Below the pieces are notes generated by a model. The model made no database searches. It was not told the DNA's origin and saw nothing but the letters and a program-made list of their open reading frames with translations. This document shows, piece after piece, positions 4,279 to 53,520 of a stretch of 54,094 nt of DNA. The first letter of the stretch is position 1. Each line of letters starts with the position of its first letter. The translations under genes and the position numbers were made by a program. This DNA is from an uncultured archaeon. GTDB lineage: Archaea; Iainarchaeota; Iainarchaeia; Iainarchaeales; Iainarchaeaceae. Location of the stretch: assembly GCA_902386385.1 (NCBI GenBank), contig CABMIU010000025.1:1-54094 (forward strand). Reading direction: 5' to 3'.

Positions 4279-5273
4279 TTTGACGCCTCTTGCCAGCCCA
4301 TGAATTTTTCGCGGTACTCTTTTATTGTAACCATCGGCGGCCTGTGCTTGATCAGGAATAGCTTCTTTGCCAATGCGTATTCTATTTTCTCACCGCTCAA
4401 TTTTGGCTCGATGAGGGTGTACATCTGGTTGATTTTATCGAGATTCACGAAAACGCCGAGGGAATTGGATTTTTCGGAAAAAGCCTGGAGGATTTCAAAC
4501 GACATTTTGCTCAGGTCATTCAATGGCCTGTTCCTGTGTTCCCTTGTCTCAAGGTCGACCTGTGCCATGGAGTCCAGGCCAAAACTCCTTTCAAGGTCAA
4601 TAAGCAGCCCCATTTCAACGCCATAGCCAGTGAAGAAAGGGACTTTTTCAAGGACTTCGCGGGTGCCGGCATATTCCCCGCTCAGAGGCTGTATGAATCC
4701 CGCGAGCTGCGGGAAATAGGCGTTGTAAAGCGGCCTCATAAGAAGTTCTGTGACCCTGCCGCCTTCGAGGTTTTTCAGGCCACCCCCCACATCAAGCGGC
4801 CGCTGGTAAAAAGCCTTTGAAAAATTAATGTTTCTGTACTTTAGAATCGGGCCTACAAGGCCATAAACGAATTTCGGGTTTATGTTCTTTATGTCTGCAT
4901 CAACCCAGCAGATTATGTCCCCTGCCGAGACAAAAAGGCTTTTCCAGAGGTTCTCCCCCTTCCCTTTCGCATATCCTTCGCCCGGCAATATATCCTTGGC
5001 GTAATAAAAAAGCGCACCGGCTTCCTCCGCAACCTTTTTCGTGTTGTCTCTTGACCCGGAATCTATTACAATTATCTCGTCAATCAGCCTTGTTTTTTTC
5101 ATTAGCGTATCCCTGAGCTCACGGATGACATTGCCAACAGTGACCTCTTCATTAAGCGTCGGGATTACGCACGAGATTCTCTTTTTTTGCTTTTTCTTTA
5201 TGTCCACGAGCTCATCCAGCGAAAAATCCGTTGCAATGAACCGGTTCTTTTCAAACCACTTTTCAACATCCAT
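4275..5273 (-). CDS. gpgS: Glucosyl-3-phosphoglycerate synthase (GT81 glycosyltransferase)
   Basis: 332 aa with ..ISCVIPTLNEE.., ..IIVIDSGSRDNT.., ..GKGENLWKSL.. and ..ICWVDADI... This resembles the GpgS/MpgS family, and the gene is coupled to a HAD-IIB phosphatase gene. Confidence 0.8.
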   Translation of the reverse strand: MDVEKWFEKNRFIATDFSLDELVDIKKKQKKRISCVIPTLNEEVTVGNVIRELRDTLMKKTRLIDEIIVIDSGSRDNTKKVAEEAGALFYYAKDILPGEGYAKGKGENLWKSLFVSAGDIICWVDADIKNINPKFVYGLVGPILKYRNINFSKAFYQRPLDVGGGLKNLEGGRVTELLMRPLYNAYFPQLAGFIQPLSGEYAGTREVLEKVPFFTGYGVEMGLLIDLERSFGLDSMAQVDLETREHRNRPLNDLSKMSFEILQAFSEKSNSLGVFVNLDKINQMYTLIEPKLSGEKIEYALAKKLFLIKHRPPMVTIKEYREKFMGWQEASK

Positions 5274-5445
5274 GCCAAAAAAAGAAACAGACCAATCATT
5301 AAAAACATTTATTTTTTGCTGAAAAACTGGTTTTTACGCCGATTGTCCAGCATTAAGTAATGCCTGCATTTTGGCCGGAACAACTCTCGCTATGGCCAAA
5401 CAGGCAGGGTTCGGCATTTGCCCCAATTGTTAATTAAAGGCTATT

Positions 5446-10384: not shown

Positions 10385-11167
10385 ATGCAGGGGCTTTCGG
10401 CTGCAAAACAGGAAATAGAGAAGGGCGTTCTGGCGAAGAGCATGCTGACCATAGTCGGCGACTGCTCTGTTGACTACTTAGGCAGGGCTACCTCCACCCT
10501 TGCGATGGGAAAGCGGCTCGTGCTTATAAAGGGCGACGGCTCGGTTTCAATCCACCAGAACAGGCTCGTTCGCCCCACGAATTACATGGTCGGGACAAAA
10601 ATATCCTGCGAGCTATGCAACGGGGGCAGCAATCTCGTGCTGAGGGCGAGCAAGCAAAGGCCAAAGGAAGACCTGACAATAATATTCAGCGGCATTGATG
10701 ACCTCAAGGCGTATGAAATGGAGATTGTGAATGACCTTAGGCTCAGCGGCTCCGAACGCGACCTAAACGAGATGCTGATGCAGGACCTTTCAATGATAGA
10801 GCCAGGCCTGAAACCGGTCAACCAGCAGCAGCATTTCCAGAAAGGGGTATGCGACATCATTGCGGAGGACAGGGAAGGCAATTTCGTCGTCATCGAGCTC
10901 AAGAGGAGGCAGGCGGATTACGCAGGTGTCACCCAGTTGCACCGTTACATGCATGAAGTGCAGAAAATGAAGGGCAGGAAAACAAGGGGAATCCTCCTTG
11001 CGCCAGATATAAGGAAGAACGCAAAGAATCTCCTCGAACAACTCGGATTGGAATTCGCGAAGCTCGACTTCGAGCTCACGCCGAGCGGGGAGGAAAAGGC
11101 GAAAATAAAGGGACTGGAGAGGAAACAGAGCAAAATCACGGAGCACATGCACCCGCAACAGGGTTGA
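10385..11167 (+). CDS. nucS: Endonuclease NucS (EndoMS)
   Basis: 260 aa. The N-terminal ..LTIVGDCSVDYLGRATSTLAMGKRLVLIKGDGSVSIHQ.. and C-terminal ..GVCDIIAEDREGNFVVIELKRRQADYAGVTQLHRY.. segments match the two NucS domains. Confidence 0.8.
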   Translation: MQGLSAAKQEIEKGVLAKSMLTIVGDCSVDYLGRATSTLAMGKRLVLIKGDGSVSIHQNRLVRPTNYMVGTKISCELCNGGSNLVLRASKQRPKEDLTIIFSGIDDLKAYEMEIVNDLRLSGSERDLNEMLMQDLSMIEPGLKPVNQQQHFQKGVCDIIAEDREGNFVVIELKRRQADYAGVTQLHRYMHEVQKMKGRKTRGILLAPDIRKNAKNLLEQLGLEFAKLDFELTPSGEEKAKIKGLERKQSKITEHMHPQQG

Positions 11168-15059: not shown

Positions 15060-15240
15060 AGCCGGCCTTGAAAGGCCATTATATTTGGAAGGCATGATGG
15101 GCAATCACAACTACACGGGGCCCAATGCTTTACAAAAGCTGCCCGCCAATCAAAATGAACGGGGGCGGGCGGCAAAAAATAAATTTATTTCTCCAGCGAG
15201 CCACGCTTTTATTCTTGGCACAGCTTTTCAGCGAAGCTGA

Positions 15241-15293
15241 CACTTTTCTTTTTGGTAAAGCTTTTTCTTTTCGTGTCAACGAAAAGAAAAAGG
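15241..15293 (-). repeat. 53-nt repeat, copy 1 (3' trailer of tRNA-Pro); contains the hairpin CTTTTTCTTTTCG-tgtcaa-CGAAAAGAAAAAG
   Basis: 47 of 53 positions are identical to 15412-15464, and only the central 6-nt linker differs. The oligo-T runs directly after the tRNA 3' end could also act as the terminator. Confidence 0.8.
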
Positions 15294-15330
15294 TTTGGGG
15301 TCGGGAGGATTTGAACCCCCGCCGCAGCGT

Positions 15331-15468
15331 CATTCGCAGCCTTTTTCTTTTTCTTGATAAGAAAAAGAAAAACGCTGGCGAAAAAGAAAAAGAACAGCCC
15401 ATAGGGCATTACACTTTTCTTTTTCCCCAGGCTTTTTCTTTTCGTGTCAACGAAAAGAAAAAGGCTGA
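15331..15468 (-). other. tRNA-Pro intron (BHB type, 138 nt)
   Basis: The BHB reads CAGCG/CGCTG, then a 4-bp TTCG/CGAA helix flanked by the 3-nt bulges GGT and TGA, then CAGCC/GGCTG. Confidence 0.8.
15412..15464 (-). repeat. 53-nt repeat, copy 2 (5' part of the tRNA-Pro intron)
   Basis: See copy 1 at 15241-15293. Confidence 0.8.
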
Positions 15469-15660
15469 CCCGAACGCTGAATCCTACCAGGCTAGACTAC
15501 GACCCCGAACAACAATATTCAAAATATTTGACTTCTATGCCCGTCATTTTAGGCAGAAACTTTTGCGGTGGGCATGACAAGGAAAATTTTGCATGAAAGG
15601 CTTAAATACCCGAAGGGGCTAATGTTTTAATTTGATTTCAGGGGAGTGGGGGAATAATTT

Positions 15661-17370
15661 TTGGACGAGAAGTTCCTTGCGAGCATAAGCGACAAGTCCA
15701 GCGGCGAGCATTTTTCGGCTTTTCCTGAAGGGTATGAGAAGGGCAGGACAAAATTCGTTATAATCACCGGTTCCGTGATGAGCGGCATAGGGAAAGGCAT
15801 TTTTTCCTCCGCATTGGGTAAGACCCTGCAGGACAGGAACCTGAAGGTCGCGCCGATAAAGGTCGAGGCTTACCTCAACATCGATTCAGGCACCCTGAGT
15901 CCTTACAGGCATGGCGAAGTATTCGTGCTCGACGATGGCACTGAAACCGATATGGACCTCGGCAGCTACGAGAGGTTCCTTGACATGGAGCTTTCAAGGG
16001 ACAATTTCACCACTCACGGCCAGATTTACAAGAGGATTATTGAAAAGGAGAGGGCGGGCTTTTACCAGGGAAGGGATGTGCAGTACATTCCGCATGTCAC
16101 TGGCGAGACGAAGATGGTGCTCAGGAACCTCGCGATGAAGTCGAAGGCGGATATTGTGCTCATTGAAATCGGGGGCACTGTGGGCGACTACGAGAATCTG
16201 TTTGCGATGGAGAGCGTGAGGGAGCTAATTTATGAGGAAGGAGCACAGAATTGCTGCTTTGTCAACCTCACATACATCCTTGAGCCGCACCACCTCGGCG
16301 AGTTCAAGAGCAAGGCAGCGCAGATAGGCCTGAGGCAGCTCATGGGCCTGGGGCTCCAGCCAGACCTGATTGTGTGCAGGAGCGAGCACCCCATAACGAG
16401 GACAGTGAAGGAAAAAATTTCAATGAATGCGAATGTTCCTATCGAGAGGGTTTTCAACACTTATGATGTCGGCAACATTTACGAACTCCCTCTGTTCTAC
16501 AGGGAACAGGGCGTTGACGAGGCAATACTGCAGGTGCTCGGCATGGAGAAGAAGTTCAAGGTGAACGGCAGCAGGAGCCTGAGGGATTGGACGGAGAAGA
16601 ACATCCTGAAACCTGAAAAGGAAGTGACTATCGGGGTTGCCGGAAAATATACTGGAACAAGCGACACTTATATCAGCATTGTAAAGGCATTGGAGCACTG
16701 CTCGGCAGTGCTGAACGCAAAGGTTAACGTGAAGTGGATTGAAGCCACTGATGTCGAGAACGGCAAGAGCAGGATTGAGGAGGAAATGCAGGGCGTGGAC
16801 GGGGTAATCGTGCCTGGCGGATTCGGAACGCGCGGGGTAGAAGGAAAAATTGCGTGCGTCAAATACCTGCGTGAGAACAAGGTGCCTTTCCTCGGGATTT
16901 GCTACGGGTTCCAGATGGCGGTTATCGAATTCTGCCGCAGCATCTGCGGGGTAAAGAATGCCAACACAGAGGAAGTGAAGAAGGATTCCGAGAATAATGT
17001 AATATGCATACTGCCGGAGCAGGAAGAGGTAGAAGGCCTCGGGGGAACGCTCCGCCTCGGCGGGTTTGACATAAAGGTGAAGAAAGGGACCCTGGCATAC
17101 GAGCTTTACGGTAAAAAGGACAAGGTGCGCGAGAGGTTCAGGCACAGGTTCAATGTGAACACAAAGTTCATTGACCTGATTGAAAAGAACGGCATGGTAT
17201 TTTCAGGGATGGCTCCGCAGAAGAGGATAATGCAAATCCTTGAATTGCCGGGGCATCCTTTCTTTGTCGGGACGCAGTATCACGCGGAATTCACCTCAAG
17301 GCCCCTGAAGCCGAACCCTGTGTACCTAGGGTTCGTGAAAGCTGCGCTGAAGAAGAAGTACGGGAAATGA
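15661..17370 (+). CDS. pyrG: CTP synthase
   Basis: 569 aa with ..FVIITGSVMSGIGKG.. and ..PFLGICYGFQMAV.. (GATase Cys). TTG start. The N-terminus is about 28 aa longer than in typical PyrG proteins. Confidence 0.95.
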   Translation: MDEKFLASISDKSSGEHFSAFPEGYEKGRTKFVIITGSVMSGIGKGIFSSALGKTLQDRNLKVAPIKVEAYLNIDSGTLSPYRHGEVFVLDDGTETDMDLGSYERFLDMELSRDNFTTHGQIYKRIIEKERAGFYQGRDVQYIPHVTGETKMVLRNLAMKSKADIVLIEIGGTVGDYENLFAMESVRELIYEEGAQNCCFVNLTYILEPHHLGEFKSKAAQIGLRQLMGLGLQPDLIVCRSEHPITRTVKEKISMNANVPIERVFNTYDVGNIYELPLFYREQGVDEAILQVLGMEKKFKVNGSRSLRDWTEKNILKPEKEVTIGVAGKYTGTSDTYISIVKALEHCSAVLNAKVNVKWIEATDVENGKSRIEEEMQGVDGVIVPGGFGTRGVEGKIACVKYLRENKVPFLGICYGFQMAVIEFCRSICGVKNANTEEVKKDSENNVICILPEQEEVEGLGGTLRLGGFDIKVKKGTLAYELYGKKDKVRERFRHRFNVNTKFIDLIEKNGMVFSGMAPQKRIMQILELPGHPFFVGTQYHAEFTSRPLKPNPVYLGFVKAALKKKYGK

Positions 17371-31246: not shown

Positions 31247-31348
31247 AAGCTTTTTCCTTTTCCCGGAAAGACCTTGTCCCCTTTGGTACGAGGCCTCGGC
31301 CCTCTAGGGCCGAGGAAAGTAAAAAGCTTGAGCAAAAAGGAAAAGAAC
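31247..31348 (+). repeat. Structured intergenic element, copy B
   Basis: The outer stem is AAGCTTTTTCCTTT (31247-31260) paired with AAAGTAAAAAGCTT (31316-31329). It encloses CCTTGTCCC..ACGAGG and a perfect 9-bp hairpin CCTCGGCCC-TCTA-GGGCCGAGG (31294-31315). The tract AAAAAGGAAAAGAAC follows at 31334-31348. Confidence 0.65.
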
Positions 31349-40470: not shown

Positions 40471-41646
40471 CTACTTCAAGCCGGCTTCCTTCGCTGCCTT
40501 TTTCAGTTCCTCGGCCTTGTCGGCCTTTTCCCATGTGAAGTCTGGGTCATCCCTCCCGAAGTGGCCATAGGAAGCGGTTTTCCTGAAGATAGGCCTCTTG
40601 AGATTCAGGTGCTTTATTATCTGGCTGGGCCTGAAGTCAAATACCCTCTGAACGATTTCCTCTAGCTTCTCGTCAGGCAATTTCCCCGTTCCGAAGGTGT
40701 TCACATAAACCGAAACAGGCTTCGAGATTCCGATTGCATAGGCGACCTGTATCTCGCACCGGTCAGCGAGCCCTGCTGCCACGATGTTCTTTGCGACGTA
40801 GCGCCCGAAGTATGCGGCGCTCCTGTCAACCTTGCTCGGGTCCTTCCCTGAAAAGGATCCCCCGCCGTGGTGCCCCACGCCCCCATAGGTGTCAACGATT
40901 ATTTTCCTTCCAGTGAGGCCTGAATCGCCCACAGGGCCGCCGATGACGAACCTTCCTGTCGGGTTAATGAAATATTTTGTGCCCTTGTCGAGCCACTTGC
41001 CGCAGACAGGCTTGACTATTTTTTCAATCACGGTTTTCTCAATCTCATCATGCTCAACTTCAGGGCCGTGCTGTGTGCTTATCACGACCGCATCAACCCT
41101 CTTCGGGACGCCGTCAGCGTATTCAACAGTAACCTGGCTCTTGCCGTCAGGCCTGAGCCACTTGATTTCGCCCTTCTTCCTGGCTTCCGCGAGCCTCATC
41201 GTGAGCCTGTGCGCGAGAGTTATTGAAAGGGGCATCATTTCAGGGGTTTCGTTTGTAGCGTAGCCGAACATCATTCCCTGGTCTCCGGCCCCCTGCTCCT
41301 TGTCGATGCCGGAGCCTTCGTTCACGCCTAGAGCGATGTCGCCACTCTGCTCCGAAAGCGAAATCAGCACCGAGCAGGCGTCCGCATCAAAGCCGTACTC
41401 AGGGTTCGCATACCCTATTTCCCTCACTGTTTCCCTCACCGTTTTCTGGATGTCGACGTAAGTCTTTGTCGTCACCTCGCCTATCACAAGTATAAGGCCT
41501 GTTTTTGTCGAGCACTCGACGGCAACCCTCGAATTCGGGTCGCCTTCAAGCATCTTGTCGAGTATTGCGTCAGCCACCTGGTCACACAACTTGTCGGGAT
41601 GCCCTTCAGTTACTGATTCAGACGTGAAAAAATACTTCCTTGCCAT
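40471..41646 (-). CDS. metK: S-adenosylmethionine synthetase, bacterial/eukaryotic type
   Basis: [30 protein letters not shown].., ..[12 protein letters not shown].. and ..[19 protein letters not shown]... The protein ends ..EAGLK followed by TAG. Confidence 0.95.
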
Positions 41647-41749
41647 GAACAATACCTCCGAAAAAACTGCTTTCTATAAAGCAAGGCGGAAAGGTTAATA
41701 ATAATTACTGCTTTATATATTCCTATAAGAATATAGCGATTCCGGCTGC

Positions 41750-42512: not shown

Positions 42513-45197
42513 ATGTCACTATATAATAGTAATGAATTAATTTTGGGGGTTGCTTTAATGTCTTCCAGTTTTTTGTATAAGGGATTGCTTTCGGGCAAGG
42601 CTTTTTCAGTGGCATTGATTGCCTTTTTCATGGCTTTTTTCTGCTTCCCTGTTTTTGGGGATAGCCCTGCATTCAGCACAATACCGGAGTTGAGAGTAAG
42701 CCAGACTGCTGGCCCGACAATCAACGCGGTTGACCTCTGGCAATATGCCTCTGATGCCGAAGACACGGATGCAAACCTCACTTTTTCCATGAGCCAGAGC
42801 GACAGCACCCTGATTAATTGCTATATCCAGAATGATGCATCTTCAAAAAATCGCTACATAGGATGCTCCAGCCCTTCACCCGGCAGGACAGGCATAAACA
42901 CGATTACCGCCAGGGCAATTGACACAAACGGGCAAAGCGCAACTGCAACTTTCAATGCCGTGATTTTCGCTGACGTGAACCCGAACACTAGCCCTGCAAT
43001 TTCAGGCCTGCCGGACCTCGCATTCCGGGATGATGTGGGAACACAGGCAAGACTTATCGACCTTCACAATTATGCAAGCGATTCCCAGTCGCCAAAGGAG
43101 CAGCTAACCTTCACCAGGGCACAGTCAAACCCCGGACTCATAAATTGCTTCATTGAAGGCGGCCGCTATTTCAGCTGCGATGCCCCGCAAAGGAACGGAA
43201 GCGGGACAAGCACAATAACGATAGAAGCAAGGGACCCGCAGGGAGCGACAGCAAGCGACTCATTCACGGTGACAATCTACAGGAGCGGGCACTACGGCGA
43301 TTATTACAATGGAGATTACTACGACAACCACTATTACGATGATTATTACGGGAATGGCAGTGCGCCTTCGCTCAGCGGCCTGCCGGATATAAGCATCGGC
43401 ATGAACGCGAGATACAGGTCAGGACTAATCGACCTCTGGGCAAATGCATACGACAGCGAGGACAACCCGGAAGACCTGCGGTACACTGTTGAAAGCCAGT
43501 CTAACACCTCGCTCATTTTCTGCAGGATAACTGACAACCGCTACTTCGAGTGCGAAGCCCCTGCAAGGGACCGCGAAGGCATCAGCGAAGTCACGATAAT
43601 GGCCAGGGACAGGAGCAACCGGACAGATTCCGAAACAATAGAAGTGCGCGTGGGCGACAACGGCGGAAATTACGGAAGCTGCGCGAATCTGGACGTGTCA
43701 ACAAGGACAATATACATGTCAGGCAACGAAACAAAGAGGGTTTCATTCGACGTACACAACAACGCCAGAAGGGACATGAGGATACGCAACGTCGAAGTTT
43801 CGGGGGACAACAGCCCTTATTTCAGTGCAAGGCTGGTTGACTATGACTCATATATAAATTCAGGGAGCTATGGCAACATTGAAATGGAACTCAGCTCAAA
43901 CAATTACAGCGGCTATCGCGAGGCGACTGTTTACATCGATATAAGCGGAGAAAGCGCGAGCACGAGCGGCTCATATTACAATGATTACTACAATGACTAT
44001 GGCCATTACAACGGAAGCTACTGCAGCAACGGCACGAGGACGGAATCGTTCAAAGTAGTGATTTCCGGATACAGCTCAGGCTCTTACGGCACATGCGGCG
44101 AAACAAGGCTCAGCGCATCAGACATCGAAGTGCCTGAAAAATCGAGGCAGGAACAGCGCGTCACGATAAGGAACAACAGCTACCGCGATTTCCAGGTTGA
44201 CACAGTCATAGTGAACGAGTCCAACATATATTTCAGCGCCTCGGTCGACAGCAGGCCTTCAGTCGTCCCCGCCAACGGCAGTGCCGACATAATCCTTTCA
44301 ATAAATTCAGATGCAGTTAGCGGCAACAAAAGCGGCAATGTAAACGTGAGCGTTGCGGGAAGGTACAGCAACGGCAATTACTGCTCAACCGCAGCGATAT
44401 ACCGCGACTTCAAAGTGACGGTGAAAGACACCTCTGCAGGCTACGGAAGCGGTTACGGGACAGGAAACGATGGCCAGGCTGCGGAAGACATAGACATTTC
44501 ATTCTCCGATTCATTTGTACAACTCGAGCAGGGCCAGTCAAAGAACGTGAAGGCGGCAATAACAAACAACACTTACTCCAGGAAATGTATCGGCCTCGAA
44601 GTGACGGGCGGCAGGGCATTCGATGCAAGCATTTCAAAAACCAATGCCTGCATTGACGCAGGCACAAGCATGGATGCCACAATCACGATAAAGGCAAATA
44701 CCCCTGGCTCAGGAAGCGCAGAACTGAAGGCAGCCTACGGAAACGCCTCGAAATCTAAATTCATTTCGGTAGAGGTCAGGGAAAGCCAGGCAAAGCTGGA
44801 TTTCGCGGTAACCTCAAAGGAATCGCAGGAAGGGAAGGCAACCCTCATCGTGGAGAACACCGGAAGCGACCTTACAAACGCGAAAATAACGGTTGAAAGC
44901 CCGGACAGCAGGGTGCAGTTTGAAGACGTTATAAAAGGATTCTGGAAGAATGGCGAGCAGGTCACTATAGAGGGAAAGGCATACGGCAACGCAATTGTAA
45001 CAGGCAATGTGAAAGTCTCAAGCGCCCTTGGCGACAAATCCGCCCCGTTCGAGCTTGAAATCAAGGGACAGGGCCAGGACATTAATGCGGGCCAGACAGG
45101 CCTTGCCGGCCTCGCAACAACAGCGGCAATGGCTGTTGCCCTTGTCGCAATACTCGGCCTCGCAGTAGTCGGCATAATGTCAATCATAGGCAGATAG
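42513..45197 (+). CDS. Large secreted surface protein with three ~95-aa Cys-containing Ig/cadherin-like repeats, Tyr-rich linkers, beta-sandwich repeats and a C-terminal anchor
   Basis: 894 aa. A signal-like segment (..VALIAFFMAFFCFPVFG..) is followed by the repeats ..DLWQYASDAEDTDANLTF.., ..DLHNYASDSQSPKEQLTF.. and ..DLWANAYDSEDNPEDLRY... The protein ends in a C-terminal TM helix. The start may be the ATG at 42558. Confidence 0.75.
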   Translation: MSLYNSNELILGVALMSSSFLYKGLLSGKAFSVALIAFFMAFFCFPVFGDSPAFSTIPELRVSQTAGPTINAVDLWQYASDAEDTDANLTFSMSQSDSTLINCYIQNDASSKNRYIGCSSPSPGRTGINTITARAIDTNGQSATATFNAVIFADVNPNTSPAISGLPDLAFRDDVGTQARLIDLHNYASDSQSPKEQLTFTRAQSNPGLINCFIEGGRYFSCDAPQRNGSGTSTITIEARDPQGATASDSFTVTIYRSGHYGDYYNGDYYDNHYYDDYYGNGSAPSLSGLPDISIGMNARYRSGLIDLWANAYDSEDNPEDLRYTVESQSNTSLIFCRITDNRYFECEAPARDREGISEVTIMARDRSNRTDSETIEVRVGDNGGNYGSCANLDVSTRTIYMSGNETKRVSFDVHNNARRDMRIRNVEVSGDNSPYFSARLVDYDSYINSGSYGNIEMELSSNNYSGYREATVYIDISGESASTSGSYYNDYYNDYGHYNGSYCSNGTRTESFKVVISGYSSGSYGTCGETRLSASDIEVPEKSRQEQRVTIRNNSYRDFQVDTVIVNESNIYFSASVDSRPSVVPANGSADIILSINSDAVSGNKSGNVNVSVAGRYSNGNYCSTAAIYRDFKVTVKDTSAGYGSGYGTGNDGQAAEDIDISFSDSFVQLEQGQSKNVKAAITNNTYSRKCIGLEVTGGRAFDASISKTNACIDAGTSMDATITIKANTPGSGSAELKAAYGNASKSKFISVEVRESQAKLDFAVTSKESQEGKATLIVENTGSDLTNAKITVESPDSRVQFEDVIKGFWKNGEQVTIEGKAYGNAIVTGNVKVSSALGDKSAPFELEIKGQGQDINAGQTGLAGLATTAAMAVALVAILGLAVVGIMSIIGR

Positions 45198-45269
45198 GGG
45201 CAGTAAAAGCATGGAGCCTGAACCGGAAAAACCGGCAAACCCACCTCCAAGGCCTGAAGCGAAAAAAAT

Positions 45270-46133
45270 GTGAAGCATATGCAACCGAAAATGAAAACAT
45301 GGATGGCAGTAATATTCGCGGCCCTGATGCCGTGCCTTGCATCGGCATTCGTGGAAGGGCAGTCATACATCAGCATAGGCGAGACGCCTTATGATTACGC
45401 ATTCACTGTCGAAAACGCCTCAAGCCAGAAGAAAGCGCTGGAGGTTTCATTCTCAATGCCCGTAAAATACGAGGCCAATGATGTGCCACAGTGGGTAATG
45501 CCGGATTCAAAGGAAGAAGTCAAAATCCGCATTTTCCCTGAAACCGGCTTTGAAGGCACAACCTACGCCGCAAAAATCAGCATAAGCCTCGGCGGGGATG
45601 TTGCAGAGAAAACACTCAACATCACTTTTGCAAATGAGAACGGCTGTCCCGTCACCGCGAAAATAACCGGCACGACAAGCGGCAATAACGGCAAAAATAC
45701 AGCATCATTTGAATTCATGAACAAGTCATACAAGCCAAAAGAAGTCAAAATATCCGGTGTCGCGGCAGGCGGCTTCGAGACCACCGGAGCACAGGAAAAA
45801 CTAGCCCTCGGGCCTTTCGAAACAAGGCCTTTCGAGGCAATACTTGAAGGCGACAAAAGCTATGAAGGCATGGCTGAATTCACCCTTGAATGCGCGGGCT
45901 CTGCCGAAAAGGCGAAGGCGATTGGGAAGGTCAAGCTCGAAGGCAAAGCGGGCTTCATTGCAAGCGGGCTTGCATTGCTCTCCGGGATAGGCAACGCGTC
46001 AGGCGGGGCCGCAAAAGGAAATCCAGGGCTTGTCGAAACCACGGTTGACGTTTTCCTCGCCGCAATTGCGGCAATACTTCTCATAGCGTTCATAGCAAGG
46101 CTGGTTAAGTTCACGAAAAAAGGGGTGCAGTGA
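45270..46133 (+). CDS. Secreted protein with a C-terminal anchor
   Basis: 287 aa with a signal peptide (..MAVIFAALMPCLASAFVEG..) and a C-terminal helix followed by KFTKKGVQ. The stop overlaps the next gene's start (GTGATG). Confidence 0.6.
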   Translation: MKHMQPKMKTWMAVIFAALMPCLASAFVEGQSYISIGETPYDYAFTVENASSQKKALEVSFSMPVKYEANDVPQWVMPDSKEEVKIRIFPETGFEGTTYAAKISISLGGDVAEKTLNITFANENGCPVTAKITGTTSGNNGKNTASFEFMNKSYKPKEVKISGVAAGGFETTGAQEKLALGPFETRPFEAILEGDKSYEGMAEFTLECAGSAEKAKAIGKVKLEGKAGFIASGLALLSGIGNASGGAAKGNPGLVETTVDVFLAAIAAILLIAFIARLVKFTKKGVQ

Positions 46134-48085
46134 TGCAGGGCGAAACCAACAAGAATGCGAATGGAAACCGGCCGCACAAAGGCGGAAAAGGCAGTGCGGC
46201 AGGCAAAGGCAAATACGCGGGCATCGCGAGCAGGGCAGGCAACGCAATATTGAAATTTTTCGCCCCTATGCTCATTGCATTCATCCTTCTGGCAGTACTC
46301 CCCGGCTCGGCTTCCGCGGAAATTTCCAACGCCGACGTGAATTTTTCCGCAGGAACTGATTTCCTGTCCCTCGAGCCAGGGCAGGACACTGGCGTTATGC
46401 TTTCAATCAGCAACAACACCTTTGACAGGCATTGCTACCGCATAGAGGCAAGCCTCGGCGGCAATGATGCGAAACAAAGCATCGAAATGAGCAGGCCTGG
46501 GCCATTCTGCCTGAATGGAAAGGAGACAACAAGGTTCAGCGTAATTGCAACAGCGAAAAGGGACGCCTTCTTCGGCAATTACACTATAAGCCTTGCCCTT
46601 GAAAGCGATAACGGCAGCACGCTTGCATCGGAAACAATTGCAGCCACAATCGACAGCCCCGCAACACCGATAGAAATCGAGAGGGGCGGCCAATATTACA
46701 TCTGCAATGAGCCCTATACAAAGGAAGTGCCTGTAATCGTTTACAATGGCTCTTCAGGCCAGATTGACGTGTCAAAACTCACGGCTGAAAACAGCGCCCT
46801 GATGCCTGAATTCGAGGATGCTGGAACAACTATTCCGGCAAATTCCTCAAAGGAACTCACAATGAAGATACATTTGAACGATACGACGCCCGCGGGCGAC
46901 TACCGGATCTCTGTTTCCGCTTTTTCGCAGGGCAGGGAAACGAAATCTGAAATAACACTTGGGCTGCAGGACTGCCTCGAAAGCTCATACCGCATTTCCG
47001 TAACCCCGGAAAAAAGGCAGATGAAGAGGGGCGAGTCAAGGGAATACAATATAAGGGTTTACAATGAAACAGACAAGGAGCAGGAAATCCTGCTCGGGGC
47101 CGAAGGGCCAGCAGGAATAAATGCTGAGCTTGGCTCCGAAAGGCTTTTCATTGCGCCGAATGGCGCCAGGGAAACGACCCTCACCGTGACCGCATCAGAC
47201 AACGCGGAATTCGGGAAACAGGAAATAACCCTGATTGCTTCAGGCCGGAAAGGGGAGAAAACCAAAAAAATAAATGTTGAAATAACGAGGGAACATGTGC
47301 TGAGCCTTTACGCAAAGGACAACAGTTTTGACCTCAGGCAGTGCTCTGTTTCCGCGAGCGAAGCATTCGAAGTCGAAATAAGCAACAGCGGCGGATACAC
47401 CGAAACAGTGTACTTCAGCACGGACAACCCAGACCCGAAGATAAACGCAAGGCTTTCGGACAGCACAATGACCCTCCTGAAAGGAGAGACGAAAAAAATC
47501 TATGTTTTCGTCGTGCCGGGCCAGGAGGCAAAAATCGGGACTCATTATGTAACGCTGGTCGCTAAGGCTTCCGGGGAAGAGGAAAGGCTGGACCTCAAGT
47601 TCAGGGTCATAGCCGCCCAAGTCCCAGGCATTATTGAAATCACTTCATACCCAAAGGAAATTTCCGTTGATGCCGGCACCGACAAGCAAATCATGTTCAC
47701 CATTGCAAACAGGGGAAGCGAAAAGCTGCAGAACGTCAGGCTGAAAATGAAAGGAGCGGGAAACGGCATTTATTTCTTCCCGAACGACGGCATTTCAATC
47801 GAGGCGGGGCAGAGCGCAGAGATAAGGGCAAAAGTGCATGCTGTCGATACAAATGAAAACTCCACGAGCTTTGCATCGGTCGAGGCAACTTCCGGCGATG
47901 CAAAGGACTCAAAGGGCGTGACAATGAAAACAATCGGCACGGGCCAGTCGGGCGCCCAGCCTGGAAACGGCAGCCTGATAACTGGTCTCCTTAACCTCAC
48001 AGGCTCATCGCTCACTGCAGTAGCAATTATAATTGTTCTCGCAACAGCATTATTCGTGGCTTACGTTGCGGGAACCAGGAAATAG
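46130..48085 (+). CDS. Secreted multi-beta-sandwich (CARDB/NEW3-like) surface protein with a C-terminal anchor
   Basis: 651 aa with a basic N-terminus and a TM/signal segment. It has repeated ..S(I/V)xxxNxGxxxxxY.. style domains and ends ..ITGLLNLTGSSLTAVAIIIVLATALFVAYVAGTRK. Confidence 0.7.
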   Translation: MMQGETNKNANGNRPHKGGKGSAAGKGKYAGIASRAGNAILKFFAPMLIAFILLAVLPGSASAEISNADVNFSAGTDFLSLEPGQDTGVMLSISNNTFDRHCYRIEASLGGNDAKQSIEMSRPGPFCLNGKETTRFSVIATAKRDAFFGNYTISLALESDNGSTLASETIAATIDSPATPIEIERGGQYYICNEPYTKEVPVIVYNGSSGQIDVSKLTAENSALMPEFEDAGTTIPANSSKELTMKIHLNDTTPAGDYRISVSAFSQGRETKSEITLGLQDCLESSYRISVTPEKRQMKRGESREYNIRVYNETDKEQEILLGAEGPAGINAELGSERLFIAPNGARETTLTVTASDNAEFGKQEITLIASGRKGEKTKKINVEITREHVLSLYAKDNSFDLRQCSVSASEAFEVEISNSGGYTETVYFSTDNPDPKINARLSDSTMTLLKGETKKIYVFVVPGQEAKIGTHYVTLVAKASGEEERLDLKFRVIAAQVPGIIEITSYPKEISVDAGTDKQIMFTIANRGSEKLQNVRLKMKGAGNGIYFFPNDGISIEAGQSAEIRAKVHAVDTNENSTSFASVEATSGDAKDSKGVTMKTIGTGQSGAQPGNGSLITGLLNLTGSSLTAVAIIIVLATALFVAYVAGTRK

Positions 48086-48232
48086 CCGGAAATGAGGCAT
48101 CACAAATACAAAAAAATCCAAGGCCGTTAGCCAAGACGCCAAGGCAAATTGAAATAATGCAGATATGCAACCAATACAAAGTCCAATATAGAGAATCAAT
48201 GCCAAGGGCAACAGGAAGGGGGGTGTGGGAAA

Positions 48233-51200
48233 TTGAAGCCAGCAATAATAATGTCAGGTATACTCTTGGTCTTGCTGGGCATATACGCCCACAGCGTCGA
48301 ACTCGAAGGCAGCTTCGAGGCAAAGGCACTGCAGTGTGAACTATCAGCAACAGGGCTGCAGGTGCGCAACACTTCAAACAGCACAGCCACTTATGCGCTT
48401 GGAGTTTCAGGCGCGGAAACCAACTGGTTCAGCGTGATTCCGGGTTCCGTAACTTTAGGGCCGGGAGATTCGGCAACTGCAAGGGTTTTCGCAATAGCGG
48501 GCTGCTATGCTTCACCCGGGAATTATTCTGCGGACATATTCGTCTCCGGGAACGGCGAAAAGGCCACAAGGAAATTCAGCCTTGAGCTGGAGCAAGGCCA
48601 CTTTGTCGGCATCAGGCTGCTCGAGGCAAGTCAATCAGCAACGCAGGGCGAGGAGAAAATTTATGCTGTCGAACTCACTAACAACACCCTTGTACCGAAC
48701 CAGTCCATCGAGAGGGTTGACCTCAGCGTCCATGGCCTTCCAAGCACATGGTATTCAATTGACGAGCCAAGGGTGCTTGTCGAAAAAGGGAACCCGAAAC
48801 AGGCGAAGATACGGGTAAAGGCACCGATAGATGCGGAACTGGGGGATTATGAATTCACGGCAAGGGCTTCGCTGCCAAATCCGGAATTCTACTCGGAGAC
48901 AAAGGCAACCCATTCCATAAGGCAGGGGCAGGAATTCAGGGCAATCCTGCCGGAAGAAGCTGTCGGTGGCACTGTAAGCGCGTGCCTCGAGGAAAAAACA
49001 AAGGCGATAGTAAAAGTCCAGAACGCAGGAAAGCAGGACGACAACCTAAAGCTCAAGCTCGAAGGCCCTAAGTTTGTCTCGCTGGGACAGAATAATGTCT
49101 CAATCGGGAAAGGAAAAGAAAGCCAGATAGGGGTACTGATTGACCCGGAAGGGGAAAAAGCAGGGGACTATAATTTCACGGTCAGGATTGAAAGCGCGGT
49201 TTACGATTACTCGGCATCAAAAGAATTCAATGTGAAGCTCCTTGACTGCTACGGGGTTGAAGTTGAAAAGCTCGAGGGCAGTGAAAATGCATGCACAGGG
49301 GAAACACCGGTATATAGATTTAGGCTAAACAATGACAGGGCAAAGCCGATTGAGCTCAATGCAAGCCTGACGGGCATCAGCGGAAAGGTCGAGCCTGAAA
49401 AAATCACTATCCAGAACGGTGCGCAGGCGGAACTTAAGGCGACCCTTGACGTGAACGGCTACGCAAAGGAAGCAAAGGCGGGGCGCAGCGACCTCGCGGC
49501 AGAGCTGATTATAGACACTTCTGGCTCGATGTCGGAAAAGCAAGGCAGCGTCCAAAAGATGGAAATAGCGCGTTCGGAAATAATAAAGCTGGTGAACAGC
49601 ATAAGCGCAATTGATTTCGGCATGAGGGTAATAGGCCAGGGAAGCCTGTGCGAGCCTTCTGAACTCGTTGTGCCGCTGAAAAAACTCGACATTGCAGCAG
49701 TGGCCAAAAAAATTTCAATGCTGGAGCCCAGAGGCAAAACCCCCCTTGTCCAGGGCCTGAGTGCTGCTGCGAATGATTTTCCCCCCGGAAAGGAAAAAGC
49801 CATAATACTCGTGAGCGACGGCAAGGAAACCTGCGACGGGAACATTGAAAGCACGGCAAGCGAGCTGGCAAAAAAAGGCATTGCAGTTTACGCGATAGGG
49901 TTTGACATCGACAGGGAAGGAAAGGCACAGCTGGAAAAAATCGCGGGTGCGACAAAAGGCGGATACTTCGAGGCGCAGGATTCAAACCAGCTTTCTTCCG
50001 TGCTAGCGGAAGTATCAAAGGAACTTGACATTGCAGCGGGCAGCAAAGGCAGGCGCACATTCACGATATCCCTCGAATCCGAAAAATTCAGTTTCGAAAA
50101 AGATTATAGCATGGAGGTCAGCGACTGCCACAATGCTGCAATGGCCCTGCCGGAATTATACATCTGCCCCGGGGCTGAAAAAAACGACACGATAACAATA
50201 GCAAACCTAGGCACGCAGCAGCAGGAATTCGCATTAGCATATTCCCCGAAATGGGTGAGCGGACCTGCAAGCGTTTCCGTCGGCCCGAACTCAAAGAAAT
50301 CCATCCAGATAAAGGCAAGCCTGCCAAAAGGCGATTCAAGGCAGCGGCAGGCAAACCTTGTCGTGAATGCCGCCTCGCAGGGGCTTTCAGTATCCAGGGA
50401 AGCGCCCATACATTATCTCCAGGACGCCATATGCTATGGCATTGACCTCCTTCTGCCGGAATCTGAAATCGATGCGGCTGCATGCGAAGGCAAGAGGCAG
50501 AAGCTTTACATAGAGAACAGGGGGATGGTGGAACAGGAAGTTTCCCTCAGCACGGACAAGGCATACACAAAGCTTACGGAAGGCACGATAAATGTCGGGC
50601 CGGGCGAAAGGAAGGAAGTGGACTTCTTTGTGACTCCGCCGTTCGACCTGCCTGAAACGACTTTCATAACAATCAGCGCGGAAACAAACAACGGCTTTTC
50701 AACAGAGGCAAAGGCAAAGCTTGTCGTGAAAGGCAACCAGGATTCCTTCGGGACTTGGCAGCCCGACATAAGAGTAAGGGACCTGAACGTATCCACGCCA
50801 AAGGGCCTGAATTACAATGCTGAAATTGAGATTGAGCTGTTCAATGACAGCAGCAAGCCAATGAAAGTTTTCAATGCGGTGGCAAAGGGATTCAATGCGG
50901 TTTTCCAGATGCCTGAAACGACAATCCCTTCGGGGAAAGCCGCGAATGCCAGGCTCCTTGTCGGGATGCCTGCAGACGCAAAATCCGGCAGCAAGACAAT
51001 CCCCCTCATGATTGAAACAAGCCTTGGCACTTTCACGAGGGACGTGGAATTCGATTACAATGCTGCAGGCAAAACAACAGACGCCAACAAAAATTCAAAG
51101 GACATCAATTCGCTTGTTTCGGACGCGGCATCAAAAAAGCAGCCGGATGAAAACAAGGCAGGCAAGCTAATTAATGACAGTAACGGCACAGGGCGGGCAG

Positions 51201-51397
51201 ACCAAAACGGAGAAATTGCCCAGAAGGAAAAGGCTAAAGAAAGGATTGTGGTCGGCACAGGCCTATTCAACCTCGCCGACTTCACGACAGCCGCACTCAT
51301 AGGCCTTGTCGCGCTGGTAATACTGCTGATAGGGCTGAGCGCATACAACGCCGTGCAGGAAGAGAAGGAAAAGGCGGAAAAAGAAGAAAAGGAATAG
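48233..51397 (+). CDS. Giant secreted surface protein with a central von Willebrand factor A domain and a C-terminal anchor
   Basis: 1054 aa. The vWA domain has a MIDAS-like ..IIDTSGSMSE.., ..GKTPLVQGL.. and ..IILVSDGKETCDG.. (about 49495-50020). It is flanked by beta-sandwich repeats and followed by a C-terminal helix and an EKEKAEKEEKE tail. Confidence 0.8.
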   Translation: MKPAIIMSGILLVLLGIYAHSVELEGSFEAKALQCELSATGLQVRNTSNSTATYALGVSGAETNWFSVIPGSVTLGPGDSATARVFAIAGCYASPGNYSADIFVSGNGEKATRKFSLELEQGHFVGIRLLEASQSATQGEEKIYAVELTNNTLVPNQSIERVDLSVHGLPSTWYSIDEPRVLVEKGNPKQAKIRVKAPIDAELGDYEFTARASLPNPEFYSETKATHSIRQGQEFRAILPEEAVGGTVSACLEEKTKAIVKVQNAGKQDDNLKLKLEGPKFVSLGQNNVSIGKGKESQIGVLIDPEGEKAGDYNFTVRIESAVYDYSASKEFNVKLLDCYGVEVEKLEGSENACTGETPVYRFRLNNDRAKPIELNASLTGISGKVEPEKITIQNGAQAELKATLDVNGYAKEAKAGRSDLAAELIIDTSGSMSEKQGSVQKMEIARSEIIKLVNSISAIDFGMRVIGQGSLCEPSELVVPLKKLDIAAVAKKISMLEPRGKTPLVQGLSAAANDFPPGKEKAIILVSDGKETCDGNIESTASELAKKGIAVYAIGFDIDREGKAQLEKIAGATKGGYFEAQDSNQLSSVLAEVSKELDIAAGSKGRRTFTISLESEKFSFEKDYSMEVSDCHNAAMALPELYICPGAEKNDTITIANLGTQQQEFALAYSPKWVSGPASVSVGPNSKKSIQIKASLPKGDSRQRQANLVVNAASQGLSVSREAPIHYLQDAICYGIDLLLPESEIDAAACEGKRQKLYIENRGMVEQEVSLSTDKAYTKLTEGTINVGPGERKEVDFFVTPPFDLPETTFITISAETNNGFSTEAKAKLVVKGNQDSFGTWQPDIRVRDLNVSTPKGLNYNAEIEIELFNDSSKPMKVFNAVAKGFNAVFQMPETTIPSGKAANARLLVGMPADAKSGSKTIPLMIETSLGTFTRDVEFDYNAAGKTTDANKNSKDINSLVSDAASKKQPDENKAGKLINDSNGTGRADQNGEIAQKEKAKERIVVGTGLFNLADFTTAALIGLVALVILLIGLSAYNAVQEEKEKAEKEEKE

Positions 51398-53245: not shown

Positions 53246-53299
53246 CTCTTTTTCTTTTTGGTTCAGCTTTTTCTTTTTCTCTCCGAGAAAAAGAAAAAG
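53246..53299 (+). repeat. Mirror-repeat pyrimidine tract plus a perfect 15-bp polypyrimidine/polypurine hairpin in the tRNA-Ser 5' leader
   Basis: The sequence reads CTCTTTTTCTTTTT (53246-53259), ggttcag, CTTTTTCTTTTTCTC (53267-53281), tcc, GAGAAAAAGAAAAAG (53285-53299). The element ends 4 nt before tRNA position 1. Confidence 0.85.
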
Positions 53300-53303
53300 G
53301 TGA

Positions 53304-53520
53304 GCGGGGATGGCAGAGCGGTCTAATGCGCACGCCTGGAATAACCCTTTTCTTTCTCTTGCGAGAGAAAGAAAAGCGTTAGCGGAAAAGAAAGAGAAGC
53401 TGGCAAGGCTTTCTTTTCTTTTTTCGCCAACGTTTTTTCTTTTCTTCGCGAAGAAAAGAAAAAAGGTTGCGGCCAGCGTGTTCCTTCACAGGAGCATGGG
53501 TTCGAATCCCATTCCCCGCG
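53304..53520 (+). tRNA. tRNA-Ser (anticodon GGA, class II) with a 133-nt intron at 37/38
   Basis: The 5' exon (53304-53341) is GCGGGGATGGCAGAGCGGTCTAATGCGCACGCCTGGAA. The 3' exon (53475-53520) is AGCGTGTTCCTTCACAGGAGCATGGGTTCGAATCCCATTCCCCGCG. The acceptor stem is GCGGGGA/TCCCCGC, a long variable arm is present, the T-arm is ATGGG-TTCGAAT-CCCAT, and the discriminator is G. Confidence 0.85.
53342..53474 (+). other. tRNA-Ser intron (BHB type, 133 nt)
   Basis: The BHB reads CACGC/GCGTG, then a central CTGG/GCGG helix (3 of 4 positions pair) flanked by the 3-nt bulges AAT and CCA, then AACC/GGTT. Confidence 0.75.

Follow-up and report, generated by a model that had tools for sequence, protein, structure and literature searches.

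A tRNA-Pro(CGG) gene with a 138-nt intron

The contig analysed here, a 54,094-nt stretch of DNA hereafter called the window, comes from an uncultured archaeon of the Iainarchaeota (DPANN) and carries on its minus strand, at 15296–15506, a tRNA-Pro(CGG) gene whose anticodon loop is interrupted by an intron of 138 nt (ARAGORN with introns allowed, c[15296,15506]). We consider it highly probable that this is a working gene whose insert is a spliced bulge-helix-bulge (BHB) intron built from proliferating, recombination-prone repeat modules. The parts of the gene are the following.

15296–15506, minus strand: tRNA-Pro(CGG) gene, intron included (ARAGORN with introns allowed; orthologues in the same position, divergent from pyrG)
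15469–15506, minus strand: exon 1, 38 nt, ending in ...CAGCG TTCGGG, positions 27–37 (ARAGORN)
15463–15474, minus strand: 5′ side of the BHB, with central helix TTCG (15474–15471), bulge GGT (15470–15468, predicted cut after G37 at 15469) and outer helix CAGCC (15467–15463); same layout in 11 orthologues
15331–15468, minus strand: BHB intron, 138 nt, at the canonical 37/38 site (ARAGORN, BHB pairing, fold z-score −8.4)
15330–15341, minus strand: 3′ side of the BHB, with outer helix GGCTG (15341–15337), central helix CGAA (15336–15333) and bulge TGA (15332–15330, predicted cut after the G at 15331) (BHB pairing)
15296–15330, minus strand: exon 2, 35 nt, beginning with A38 CGCTG (ARAGORN)

Read on the minus strand from 15506 to 15296, the gene runs GGGGTCG TA GTCT AGCCTGGTA GGAT T CAGCG TTCGGG, then the 138-nt intron, then A CGCTG CGGC GGGGG TTCAAAT CCTCC CGACCCC A, where the last letter, at 15296, is the discriminator; CCA is not encoded. 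When the intron is removed in silico, ARAGORN calls the 73-nt product as tRNA-Pro(CGG) with a normal cloverleaf and the anticodon loop TTCGGGA. The identity of the tRNA, the 37/38 site and the intron length proposed in a preliminary description of this locus are thereby borne out, and the sequence statements of that description were all found in place.

Why does such a gene go unnoticed? Standard annotation misses it because ARAGORN with default settings and Rfam at the gathering score report no tRNA across the whole window, which also leaves out the second gene described below, tRNA-Ser(GGA). Introns break tRNA models, and this silence is therefore an annotation blind spot and not evidence of absence. 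An Rfam scan of 15150–15650 by E-value returned only sub-threshold matches to generic microRNA-precursor-like hairpins; it assigned no family to the intron and brought no small nucleolar RNA family near threshold. UGAUGA (box C) is absent from the intron sequence, and the sub-threshold matches together with the missing box C/D motifs rule out a known RNA family or a box C/D intron.

The BHB motif is conserved among orthologous genes

The pairing at the exon-intron junctions was re-derived and gives the helix-bulge-helix-bulge-helix motif that the preliminary description had recognised. The anticodon stem CAGCG/CGCTG is continued by a central helix TTCG/CGAA with 4/4 pairs and by an outer helix CAGCC/GGCTG that can be extended to 12 bp, and the two 3-nt bulges, GGT and TGA, lie on opposite strands with the 4-bp helix between them, placing the predicted cuts after 15469 and 15331. 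The locus thus has the bulges and 4-bp helix, the flanking helices and the 7-nt anticodon loop after excision that define the canonical hBHBh′ form (h, helix), and the motif is kept in relatives.

Indeed, the tRNA-Pro(CGG) gene lies in the same place beside pyrG in relatives (loci are designated by L numbers), with introns of 176, 66, 92, 80, 76, 196, 139, 69, 123 and 36 nt, and without an intron in L014, L017 and L020. All 11 intron-bearing orthologues have 3–4 of 4 pairs in the central helix, both 3-nt bulges and an outer helix of 3–12 bp, the sequence of which varies by genome (CAGCC/GGCTG, GACC/GGTC, CAACC/GGTTG, GGCC/GGCC, AACC/GGTT, GGCG/TGCC and others); the acceptor stems also vary compensatorily. 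Conservation of the BHB with compensatory changes in 11 orthologues is the strongest available evidence for splicing and for a functional gene. Intron content is not conserved among the orthologues: some hold one copy of the repeat module described below, some a pair of modules, and some a module together with a nested element unrelated to it. Five carry a sense module only, and the 36-nt intron of L016 has the BHB but lacks a module, pointing to a short ancestor that was inflated later. Archaeal tRNA introns mostly measure 12–40 nt, and the box C/D-bearing tRNA-Trp intron about 100 nt. The length of the Pro intron is accordingly unusual for archaea in general, as had been pointed out, though not within this lineage, where orthologous introns range from 36 to 196 nt. 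As a separate observation, short GC stems with a T6 loop (e.g. CGCGCTTTTTTCCGCG, CCGAAGTTTTTTCGG) occur 20–45 nt upstream of tRNA-Pro in L003, L006 and L007; no such element is found in the window.

The intron as a whole is an inverted repeat with 64-nt arms, and its predicted fold has −62.3 kcal/mol compared with −30.3 ± 3.8 kcal/mol in 200 shuffles (z = −8.4; 0/200 as good). According to the nearest-neighbour model, the 64-nt inverted repeat can pair into a single rod, which is favoured by 4.5 kcal/mol over a fold of three hairpins: when cloverleaf and BHB are imposed, the rod reaches −92.1 and the three hairpins −87.6 kcal/mol. The BHB is retained in both, and both lie 3.4–8 kcal/mol from the unconstrained minimum.

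The intron body is a repeat module and its inverted copy

The module is a unit of ~55 nt composed of CC, a T-rich tract (Y1), a 3–8-nt loop, a complementary A-rich tract (R1), a 6–9-nt linker and a second A-rich tract (R2) that mirrors R1. In many copies this linker is CG-NNNN-CG or another self-complementary turn of that kind, e.g. CGTTAACG, CGCCGGCG and CCCCGGGG. The 138-nt intron consists of a sense module (15465–15411) followed by an inverted one (15340–15397 of the plus strand), and its outer BHB helix is made of the outward CC...GG ends of the two inverted modules plus 3 nt. The three polypurine/polypyrimidine hairpins noted earlier are present as written; they are not a design specific to the intron, being a module and its inverted copy side by side, in which the "central hairpin" arises where R2 of the first module pairs with the corresponding tract of the second. 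Directly after the tRNA-Pro 3′ end, at 15240–15293, the initial 54 nt of the intron are repeated with 91% identity, and a 31-mer of the first hairpin has two exact occurrences compared with 0 expected.

A second tRNA gene, the only other one in the window, is tRNA-Ser(GGA), and its intron is likewise a module plus an inverted module. Its BHB has CTGG/GCGG (3/4 pairs), bulges AAT and CCA, and the outer helix AACC/GGTT, and ARAGORN recognises its spliced 84-nt product as a class II tRNA-Ser of canonical form. For the unspliced gene ARAGORN gives an intron of 126 nt, which is a mis-parse, and 133 nt is preferred on BHB and cloverleaf grounds. The second gene and the module copies of the window are the following.

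53304–53520, plus strand: tRNA-Ser(GGA), with exon 1 at 53304–53341, a 133-nt intron at 53342–53474 (37/38 site) and exon 2 at 53475–53520 (ARAGORN plus BHB/cloverleaf reading)
15411–15465, minus strand: module copy 1, Pro intron, tRNA sense, CC-TTTTTCTTTTCGT-TGAC-ACGAAAAGAAAAAG-CCTGGGG-AAAAAGAAAAG-TGT (repeat search and strict scan: 12-bp stem, mirror tract with 0 mismatches)
15340–15397, plus strand: module copy 2, Pro intron, inverted, CC-TTTTTCTTTTTCTT-GAT-AAGAAAAAGAAAAA-CGCTGGCG-AAAAAGAAAAAGAA-C (strict scan: 14-bp stem, mirror 14/14)
15240–15294, minus strand: module copy 3, 3′ trailer, beginning 2 nt past the discriminator, 91% identity over 54 nt to copy 1 (repeat search, strict scan)
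53345–53399, plus strand: module copy 4, Ser intron, sense, CC-CTTTTCTTTCTCT-TGCG-AGAGAAAGAAAAG-CGTTAGCG-GAAAAGAAAGAGAAG, mirror non-periodic over 13 nt (read directly from the sequence)
53409–53466, minus strand: module copy 5, Ser intron, inverted, CC-TTTTTTCTTTTCTTCG-CGAAGAAAAGAAAAAA-CGTTGGCG-AAAAAAGAAAAGAAAG (repeat search)
53246–53300, minus strand: module copy 6, ending 4 nt 5′ of tRNA-Ser and pointing away from the gene (strict scan: 15-bp stem, 1 mirror mismatch)

All six copies in the 54 kb lie at the two tRNA loci, as do the four sites that a strict hairpin-plus-mirror-tract scan of the window returned (0 in 50 shuffles). With regard to a possible origin from a DNA transposon, of the kind of miniature inverted-repeat transposable elements or repetitive extragenic palindromic elements, the module pair has inverted ends, but neither a short target-site duplication nor a transposase gene in the window was seen. 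Some copies are flanked by 22–26-nt direct repeats of tRNA 3′ ends. Complementarity between hairpin loop and module tail was also considered as a general feature and dropped, since it is confined to the CGTTGACACG/GTGT subfamily (13 instances of at least 4 nt compared with 3.1 expected).

The second purine tract mirrors the first

In the module R2 is the mirror image of R1, and not an inverted or direct copy, and this holds for non-periodic variants as well: R1 is AGAGAAAGAAAAG and R2 GAAAAGAAAGAGA in the Ser intron, and GAGAAAGAAAAA and AAAAAGAAAGAG respectively in the trailer of L003. At positions not fixed by the search pattern, mirror identity was 52.5% over 131 unique instances compared with 33 ± 1.8%, and 40% at most, in 5000 permutations. 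The mirror tract covaries with the hairpin, and no mutational process that would generate mirror repeats is known to us. The succession of a pyrimidine tract, a Watson-Crick purine tract and a mirror purine tract is the three-block layout of a class II intrastrand triplex motif. By the definitions of PMC4666352 triplex motifs include a class II purine and a class IV pyrimidine form, and of the two only pyrimidine-motif triplexes form in RNA (PMC4666352). From this symmetry we give even chances to the module folding as an intrastrand triplex. The DNA strand with the order CC-Y-R-R would follow the class II purine motif, and its complement, or an RNA with the inverted copy, would follow the class IV pyrimidine motif (U.A-U, C+.G-C). 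In the pre-tRNA, copy 2 reads as Hoogsteen pyrimidine tract, turn and hairpin, and only this inverted copy could form an RNA triple helix, with TTCTTTTTCTTTTT parallel to AAGAAAAAGAAAAA and 14 possible triples. For the sense copy a triplex would require single-stranded DNA.

Modules occur in many tRNA introns, in a 16S rRNA gene and at gene ends

The search of related genomes for the intron module, proposed in the preliminary description, did find it, in many tRNA introns and at gene ends of relatives. The module pattern was searched in metagenome contigs, where it matched at least 120 stretches whose contexts were assigned by ARAGORN and position analysis. Around these modules ~197,000 trial excisions were submitted to ARAGORN by brute-force virtual splicing, and because this was too noisy to place non-canonical introns, the latter were read by eye.

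At least 15 copies lie within called introns of 59–149 nt, in genes for tRNA-Val, His, Asn, Glu, Arg, Met, Gly, Ser, Ala, Leu and Cys. At least 11 lie 2–8 nt past tRNA 3′ ends, all in tRNA sense among the matches listed, and at least 7 lie just 5′ of tRNAs, 6 of which point away at 2–6 nt from the 5′ end; among the matches listed the CC/T-tract end of the module always faces the exon. Many cases that ARAGORN leaves uncalled prove, on reading, to be plainly disrupted tRNAs. Non-canonical sites are found in the T-loop, where the module follows GGTTCGAA in L103 (tRNA-Val(GAC)), L084, L105, L184 and L192, and after the D-loop in L112, in a tRNA-Ala that seemingly has three or more introns. By eye, too, a module pair interrupts the 16S rRNA gene of L149 (~10600–10830, minus strand): its removal restores GCTGAAACTTAAAGG, and its BHB is perfect, with AAG/CTT, GCTG/CAGC, bulges AAA/AAA and CCAGCC/GGTTGG. 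The spacer tRNA-Ala of the same locus carries a 158-nt intron. Module-bearing introns hence span at least a dozen tRNA species, several positions and 16S rRNA, as expected of a mobile or transposed intron family. Outside RNA genes, the module stands 0–2 nt past the stop codons of thermosome, PurN-like formyltransferase, ThiF-family and Lhr-like helicase genes, and therefore behaves as a general gene-end element. These sites are the following.

L193, 65–116: module at a protein gene end
L150, 12553–12600: module at a protein gene end
L168, 4622–4663: module at a protein gene end
L125, 13234–13283: module at a protein gene end

Some matches were set aside. Those with the linkers GGAAGCG or GGTGCGCG follow open reading frames (ORFs), are not tRNA-linked and owe their mirror symmetry to the search pattern, and they look like elements of other organisms; two matches on viral contigs and one in L129, next to a eukaryote- or virus-like capping enzyme, were treated as chance. 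Two other elements made of a hairpin plus a purine tract, ...CTTCCTTTTTCTTTG-loop-CAAAGAAAAAGGAAGCGAAAAAGAAAAACTTTTTG and GCACCTTTTTCTTTTCGGTGAAAAGAAAAAGGTGCGCGAAAAAGAAAAGC, recur 3′ of ORFs on unrelated-looking contigs (L081, L083, L099, L101, L108, L116, L140 and others; L120, L137, L160, L169, L188).

Intron presence and arrangement differ between close relatives

Two loci assigned to Candidatus Iainarchaeum andersonii are ~97% identical around the tRNA-Pro gene and differ in the state of its intron.

L008, 1786–1929: exon 1, a 69-nt intron (TAACC + module ... CGAACG), exon 2, then CTTGTTTTTTTGAGC
L014, 2100–2321: exons 1 and 2 joined, then TAACC + module + ~100 nt, a decayed exon 2 (ACGTAGTTTTTCTGAGGTTCTGAATCCTCTCTCCCA), then CTTGTTTTTTTGAGC

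The presence of the intron is thus polymorphic between close relatives. L014 is most simply the derived state, because the intron is common to 11 orthologues, and would have arisen if a fresh exon-2 copy had landed at the 5′ splice site, making the former intron a trailer. Conversion of this kind would explain why intron starts and trailers have the module in common.

Other rearrangements involve tRNA 3′ ends. Tandem units of a tRNA 3′ end plus a module lie downstream of tRNA-Cys and tRNA-Gln (L124, ~830–1018; L153, ~5070–5295, the latter with an exact 22-nt copy), and in L102 such units (132–179 and 1869–1916) flank a ~1.7-kb segment with a DNA-methylase-like ORF, an arrangement reminiscent of att sites around an integrated element. 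The loop or linker of modules in L001, L006, L007, L010 and the trailer of L014 also holds a second, unrelated repeat of two back-to-back hairpins, CCTKG-hairpin-AGGCCTCG-hairpin-CAAGG, which accounts for the longest orthologous introns. When searched for, this nested element turned up only in the tRNA-Pro introns of L006, L007 and L010, at the positions given here.

L006, ~860–1000: nested second element
L007, ~2750–2800: nested second element
L010, ~2400–2470: nested second element

Its one match in the window, at 31272, is compatible with chance, as such a match also arose in 5% of shuffles.

Host and genomic neighbourhood

The gene divergent from tRNA-Pro, at 15661–17370 on the plus strand, encodes CTP synthase (pyrG), whose closest relatives (75–86% identity) are found in metagenome-assembled genomes and a single-cell genome of Candidatus Iainarchaeum/Diapherotrites (DPANN). 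Elsewhere the window carries ordinary chromosomal genes, among them nadABC, an A-type ATPase operon and those for NucS, enolase, phosphoribosyl pyrophosphate synthase and an ABC transporter. Among CTP synthases from outside Iainarchaeota, the nearest are mostly those of Planctomycetota/Phycisphaerae (51–57%), together with two metagenome-assembled genomes of Woesearchaeota (55–58%). The S-adenosylmethionine synthetase at 40471–41652 (minus strand) matches the MetK families PF00438, PF02772 and PF02773, which we take to be of bacterial/eukaryotic type. The MetK type and the CTP synthase relatives suggest bacterial gene acquisition. On the plus strand, 42513–51397 encodes very large predicted proteins (894, 287, 651 and 1054 aa) with Ig-like, NEW3 and VWA domains, and is probably a cell-surface or adhesion cluster.

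Interpretation and alternatives

A model of how the locus might work can be outlined. The pre-tRNA would be transcribed through the intron, EndA would cut on the 3′ side of G37 (15469) and of the final base of the intron (15331), and RtcB would join the tRNA-Pro exons, with CCA added after splicing because none is encoded. The excised intron would leave as a very stable RNA, linear or circular, in the shape of a rod or of three hairpins, and its body would be passenger sequence with no role in decoding. A short ancestral BHB intron may have been inflated by module copies, with recombination, duplication or integration as the means by which the module spreads or passes between introns and gene trailers. 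The T5CT3-5 tract at gene ends is most likely a leaky archaeal oligo-T termination signal. The triplex fold might be what the spreading mechanism recognises, or it might make the sites recombinogenic, as proposed for a bacterial analogue (PMC4666352).

Several observations weigh against parts of this model. The main tension is that in the sense direction the intron, which sits within an essential precursor, holds three oligo-T tracts (T5CT4, T5CT5 and T5CT5CTT), and such tracts should cause archaeal RNA polymerase to terminate prematurely to some extent. We infer splicing solely from conservation, and the triplex from sequence symmetry, whose permutation statistics may be inflated by shared descent of many instances. 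Since RNA does not form triplexes of the purine motif (PMC4666352), the sense copy cannot make a triple helix in the pre-tRNA. As to the means of spreading and processing, the proteins of the window include no transposase or integrase, no short target-site duplication was seen at module sites, and the EndA and RtcB genes are absent from the 54-kb window. Finally, neither an exon-2 remnant 3′ of the trailer module of tRNA-Pro nor an exon-1 remnant upstream of the leader module of tRNA-Ser was found when looked for, and therefore a history of the L014 type is not demonstrable at the two loci of the window.

Could the module be primarily a host element? It might serve as a structured bidirectional terminator or insulator at gene ends, halting RNA polymerase through its T-tracts and triplex-prone DNA, and have reached introns secondarily through trailer-intron exchange, without selfish spread, a scheme that we hold possible and nonetheless rather doubtful. 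Its copies lie 0–8 nt past tRNA ends (at least 11, all sense among the matches listed) and 0–2 nt past stop codons with the T-tract first; T5CT3-5 fits the archaeal oligo-T termination signal, copy 1 of the window intron is 91% identical to a trailer copy, and L014 has an intron turned trailer. However, the module also stands right after exon 1 of single-copy tRNA genes and within a 16S rRNA gene, where efficient termination would be lethal, and the outward-facing copies 5′ of tRNAs terminate nothing useful. Moreover, the second element nested in the module looks like selfish DNA, and the analogue in E. coli lacks terminator activity (PMC4666352).

The intron might also be kept as a functional RNA released by splicing, either a guide RNA, like that of the box C/D-bearing tRNA-Trp intron, or a stable circular RNA protected by a U.A-U triple helix of the inverted module. 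Excised archaeal introns are often circularised, the predicted fold is very stable, and by the motif definition of PMC4666352 an RNA with the inverted copy could make 14 pyrimidine-motif triples in a row. However, box C/D motifs and an Rfam family are both lacking, intron content is unconserved among orthologues of 36–196 nt, and most introns have a sense copy only and would be unable to form an RNA triplex, which makes this reading improbable.

Still less probable is a pseudogene inactivated by a palindromic repeat inserted in its anticodon loop, the BHB-like pairing being incidental. Default tRNA finders do not call the gene, the insert is repeat DNA that also occupies intergenic positions, and loss would be tolerable because tRNA-Pro(UGG) could read CCG by wobble. 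On the other hand, the BHB is kept in 11 orthologues with outer-helix compensation, the exons form a perfect cloverleaf with acceptor-stem compensation, and introns with like modules interrupt tRNA-Ser(GGA) and the Met(CAT), His and Asn genes of relatives. All such tRNA genes are usually single-copy and indispensable in archaea. Least probable of all is a split gene with adjacent halves, in which module 1 would terminate exon 1, the inverted module would supply promoter-like T-rich DNA for a transcript of exon 2, and the halves would pair by way of the modules and be trans-spliced at the BHB as in Nanoarchaeum: split tRNAs do exist in DPANN archaea (PMC4033280), the sense module is positioned like a gene end, and an inverted module with a T-rich tract at about −24 to −38 lies 2–6 nt 5′ of intact tRNAs at at least 6 metagenome loci and 4 nt 5′ of tRNA-Ser, but five orthologous introns have the sense module only, with nothing promoter-like before exon 2, so that read-through must occur there, no TATA-like sequence was seen by eye in the spacer between the two modules, and the T-rich tract fits the TATA consensus of archaea poorly.

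Returning to a spliced intron assembled from spreading modules, a stronger form of the idea would make the module a new archaeal mobile or recombinogenic element that is recognised by its triplex fold and creates, enlarges, moves and destroys BHB introns. We regard this form as unlikely. Such an element might act by two routes, one being integration that duplicates the tRNA 3′ half, with later loss of one copy, and the other trailer-intron exchange. In a bolder variant, sense and inverted copies may be terminator and promoter-proximal modules, and introns made of a module pair may be miniature intergenic spacers on the way towards split genes.

Relation to known systems

Like canonical archaeal BHB introns at 37/38, which are processed by EndA and RtcB, the Pro intron has two 3-nt bulges, a 4-bp helix and flanking helices, and leaves a standard cloverleaf upon removal; unlike them, it is several times the usual length, and two inverted copies of a genome-wide repeat make up its body, their ends supplying the outer helix. 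The box C/D tRNA-Trp intron of Euryarchaeota (about 105 nt) is also long and at the canonical site, whereas here there are no box C/D motifs, no Rfam match and no conserved content between orthologues. In the account given in PMC4033280, which cites Fujishima 2010, the transposed introns of Thermoproteales are related across tRNA species and non-canonical positions within one lineage, as are the present ones; the latter, however, belong to DPANN Iainarchaeota, are much longer and are built from a three-tract module that also occurs outside introns and in 16S rRNA. The non-canonical intron sites agree with the reported link between DPANN EndAs that have an L3 loop and increased tRNA disruption (PMC5829648). 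With the Caldiarchaeum model of tRNA disruption by integration and recombination (PMC3293823) the present loci share intron polymorphism with a displaced tRNA fragment (L008/L014) and inserts flanked by tRNA-3′-end repeats (L102, L124, L153); they differ from it in that the units are ~100–150 bp and non-coding, and that no recombinase gene was identified, L102 having only its methylase-like ORF.

The closest architectural parallel is bacterial. The BoxC/PIT/TMECO class II repeats, known from E. coli and further bacteria, fold into triplexes in vitro and have been linked to genomic instability (PMC4666352), and the module has in common with them the block order on one strand, the dispersed multicopy occurrence and local rearrangement. 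In contrast to the G/C-rich CCCTCNCCC consensus of BoxC, the module is A/T-rich (T5CT4 / A4GA5 / A5GA4); it is archaeal, its second loop has 6–9 nt instead of 3, and it is tied to RNA-processing sites and gene ends. The module does not conform to the BoxC/TMECO consensus CCCTCNCCC-N3-6-GGGNGAGGG-N3-GGGNGAGGG and has no sequence homology to it, and is therefore an architectural analogue and not a family member. A full-text search of the literature found no description of such modules in Iainarchaeota or other DPANN archaea.

What does the finding mean for these organisms? To our knowledge, it is the first link of an intrastrand-triplex-type repeat to RNA-processing sites. Other DPANN genomes that seemingly lack tRNAs may carry introns of the module-bearing type. 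The lineage gives rare snapshots of archaeal intron gain and loss, in which one orthologous site has an intron of 0–196 nt, a near-identical genome pair differs by the conversion of an intron into a trailer, and one repeat family extends across tRNA introns, a 16S intron and gene ends. If the mobile-element form of our proposal were true, populations of Iainarchaeota would hold live snapshots of the gain and loss of archaeal introns.

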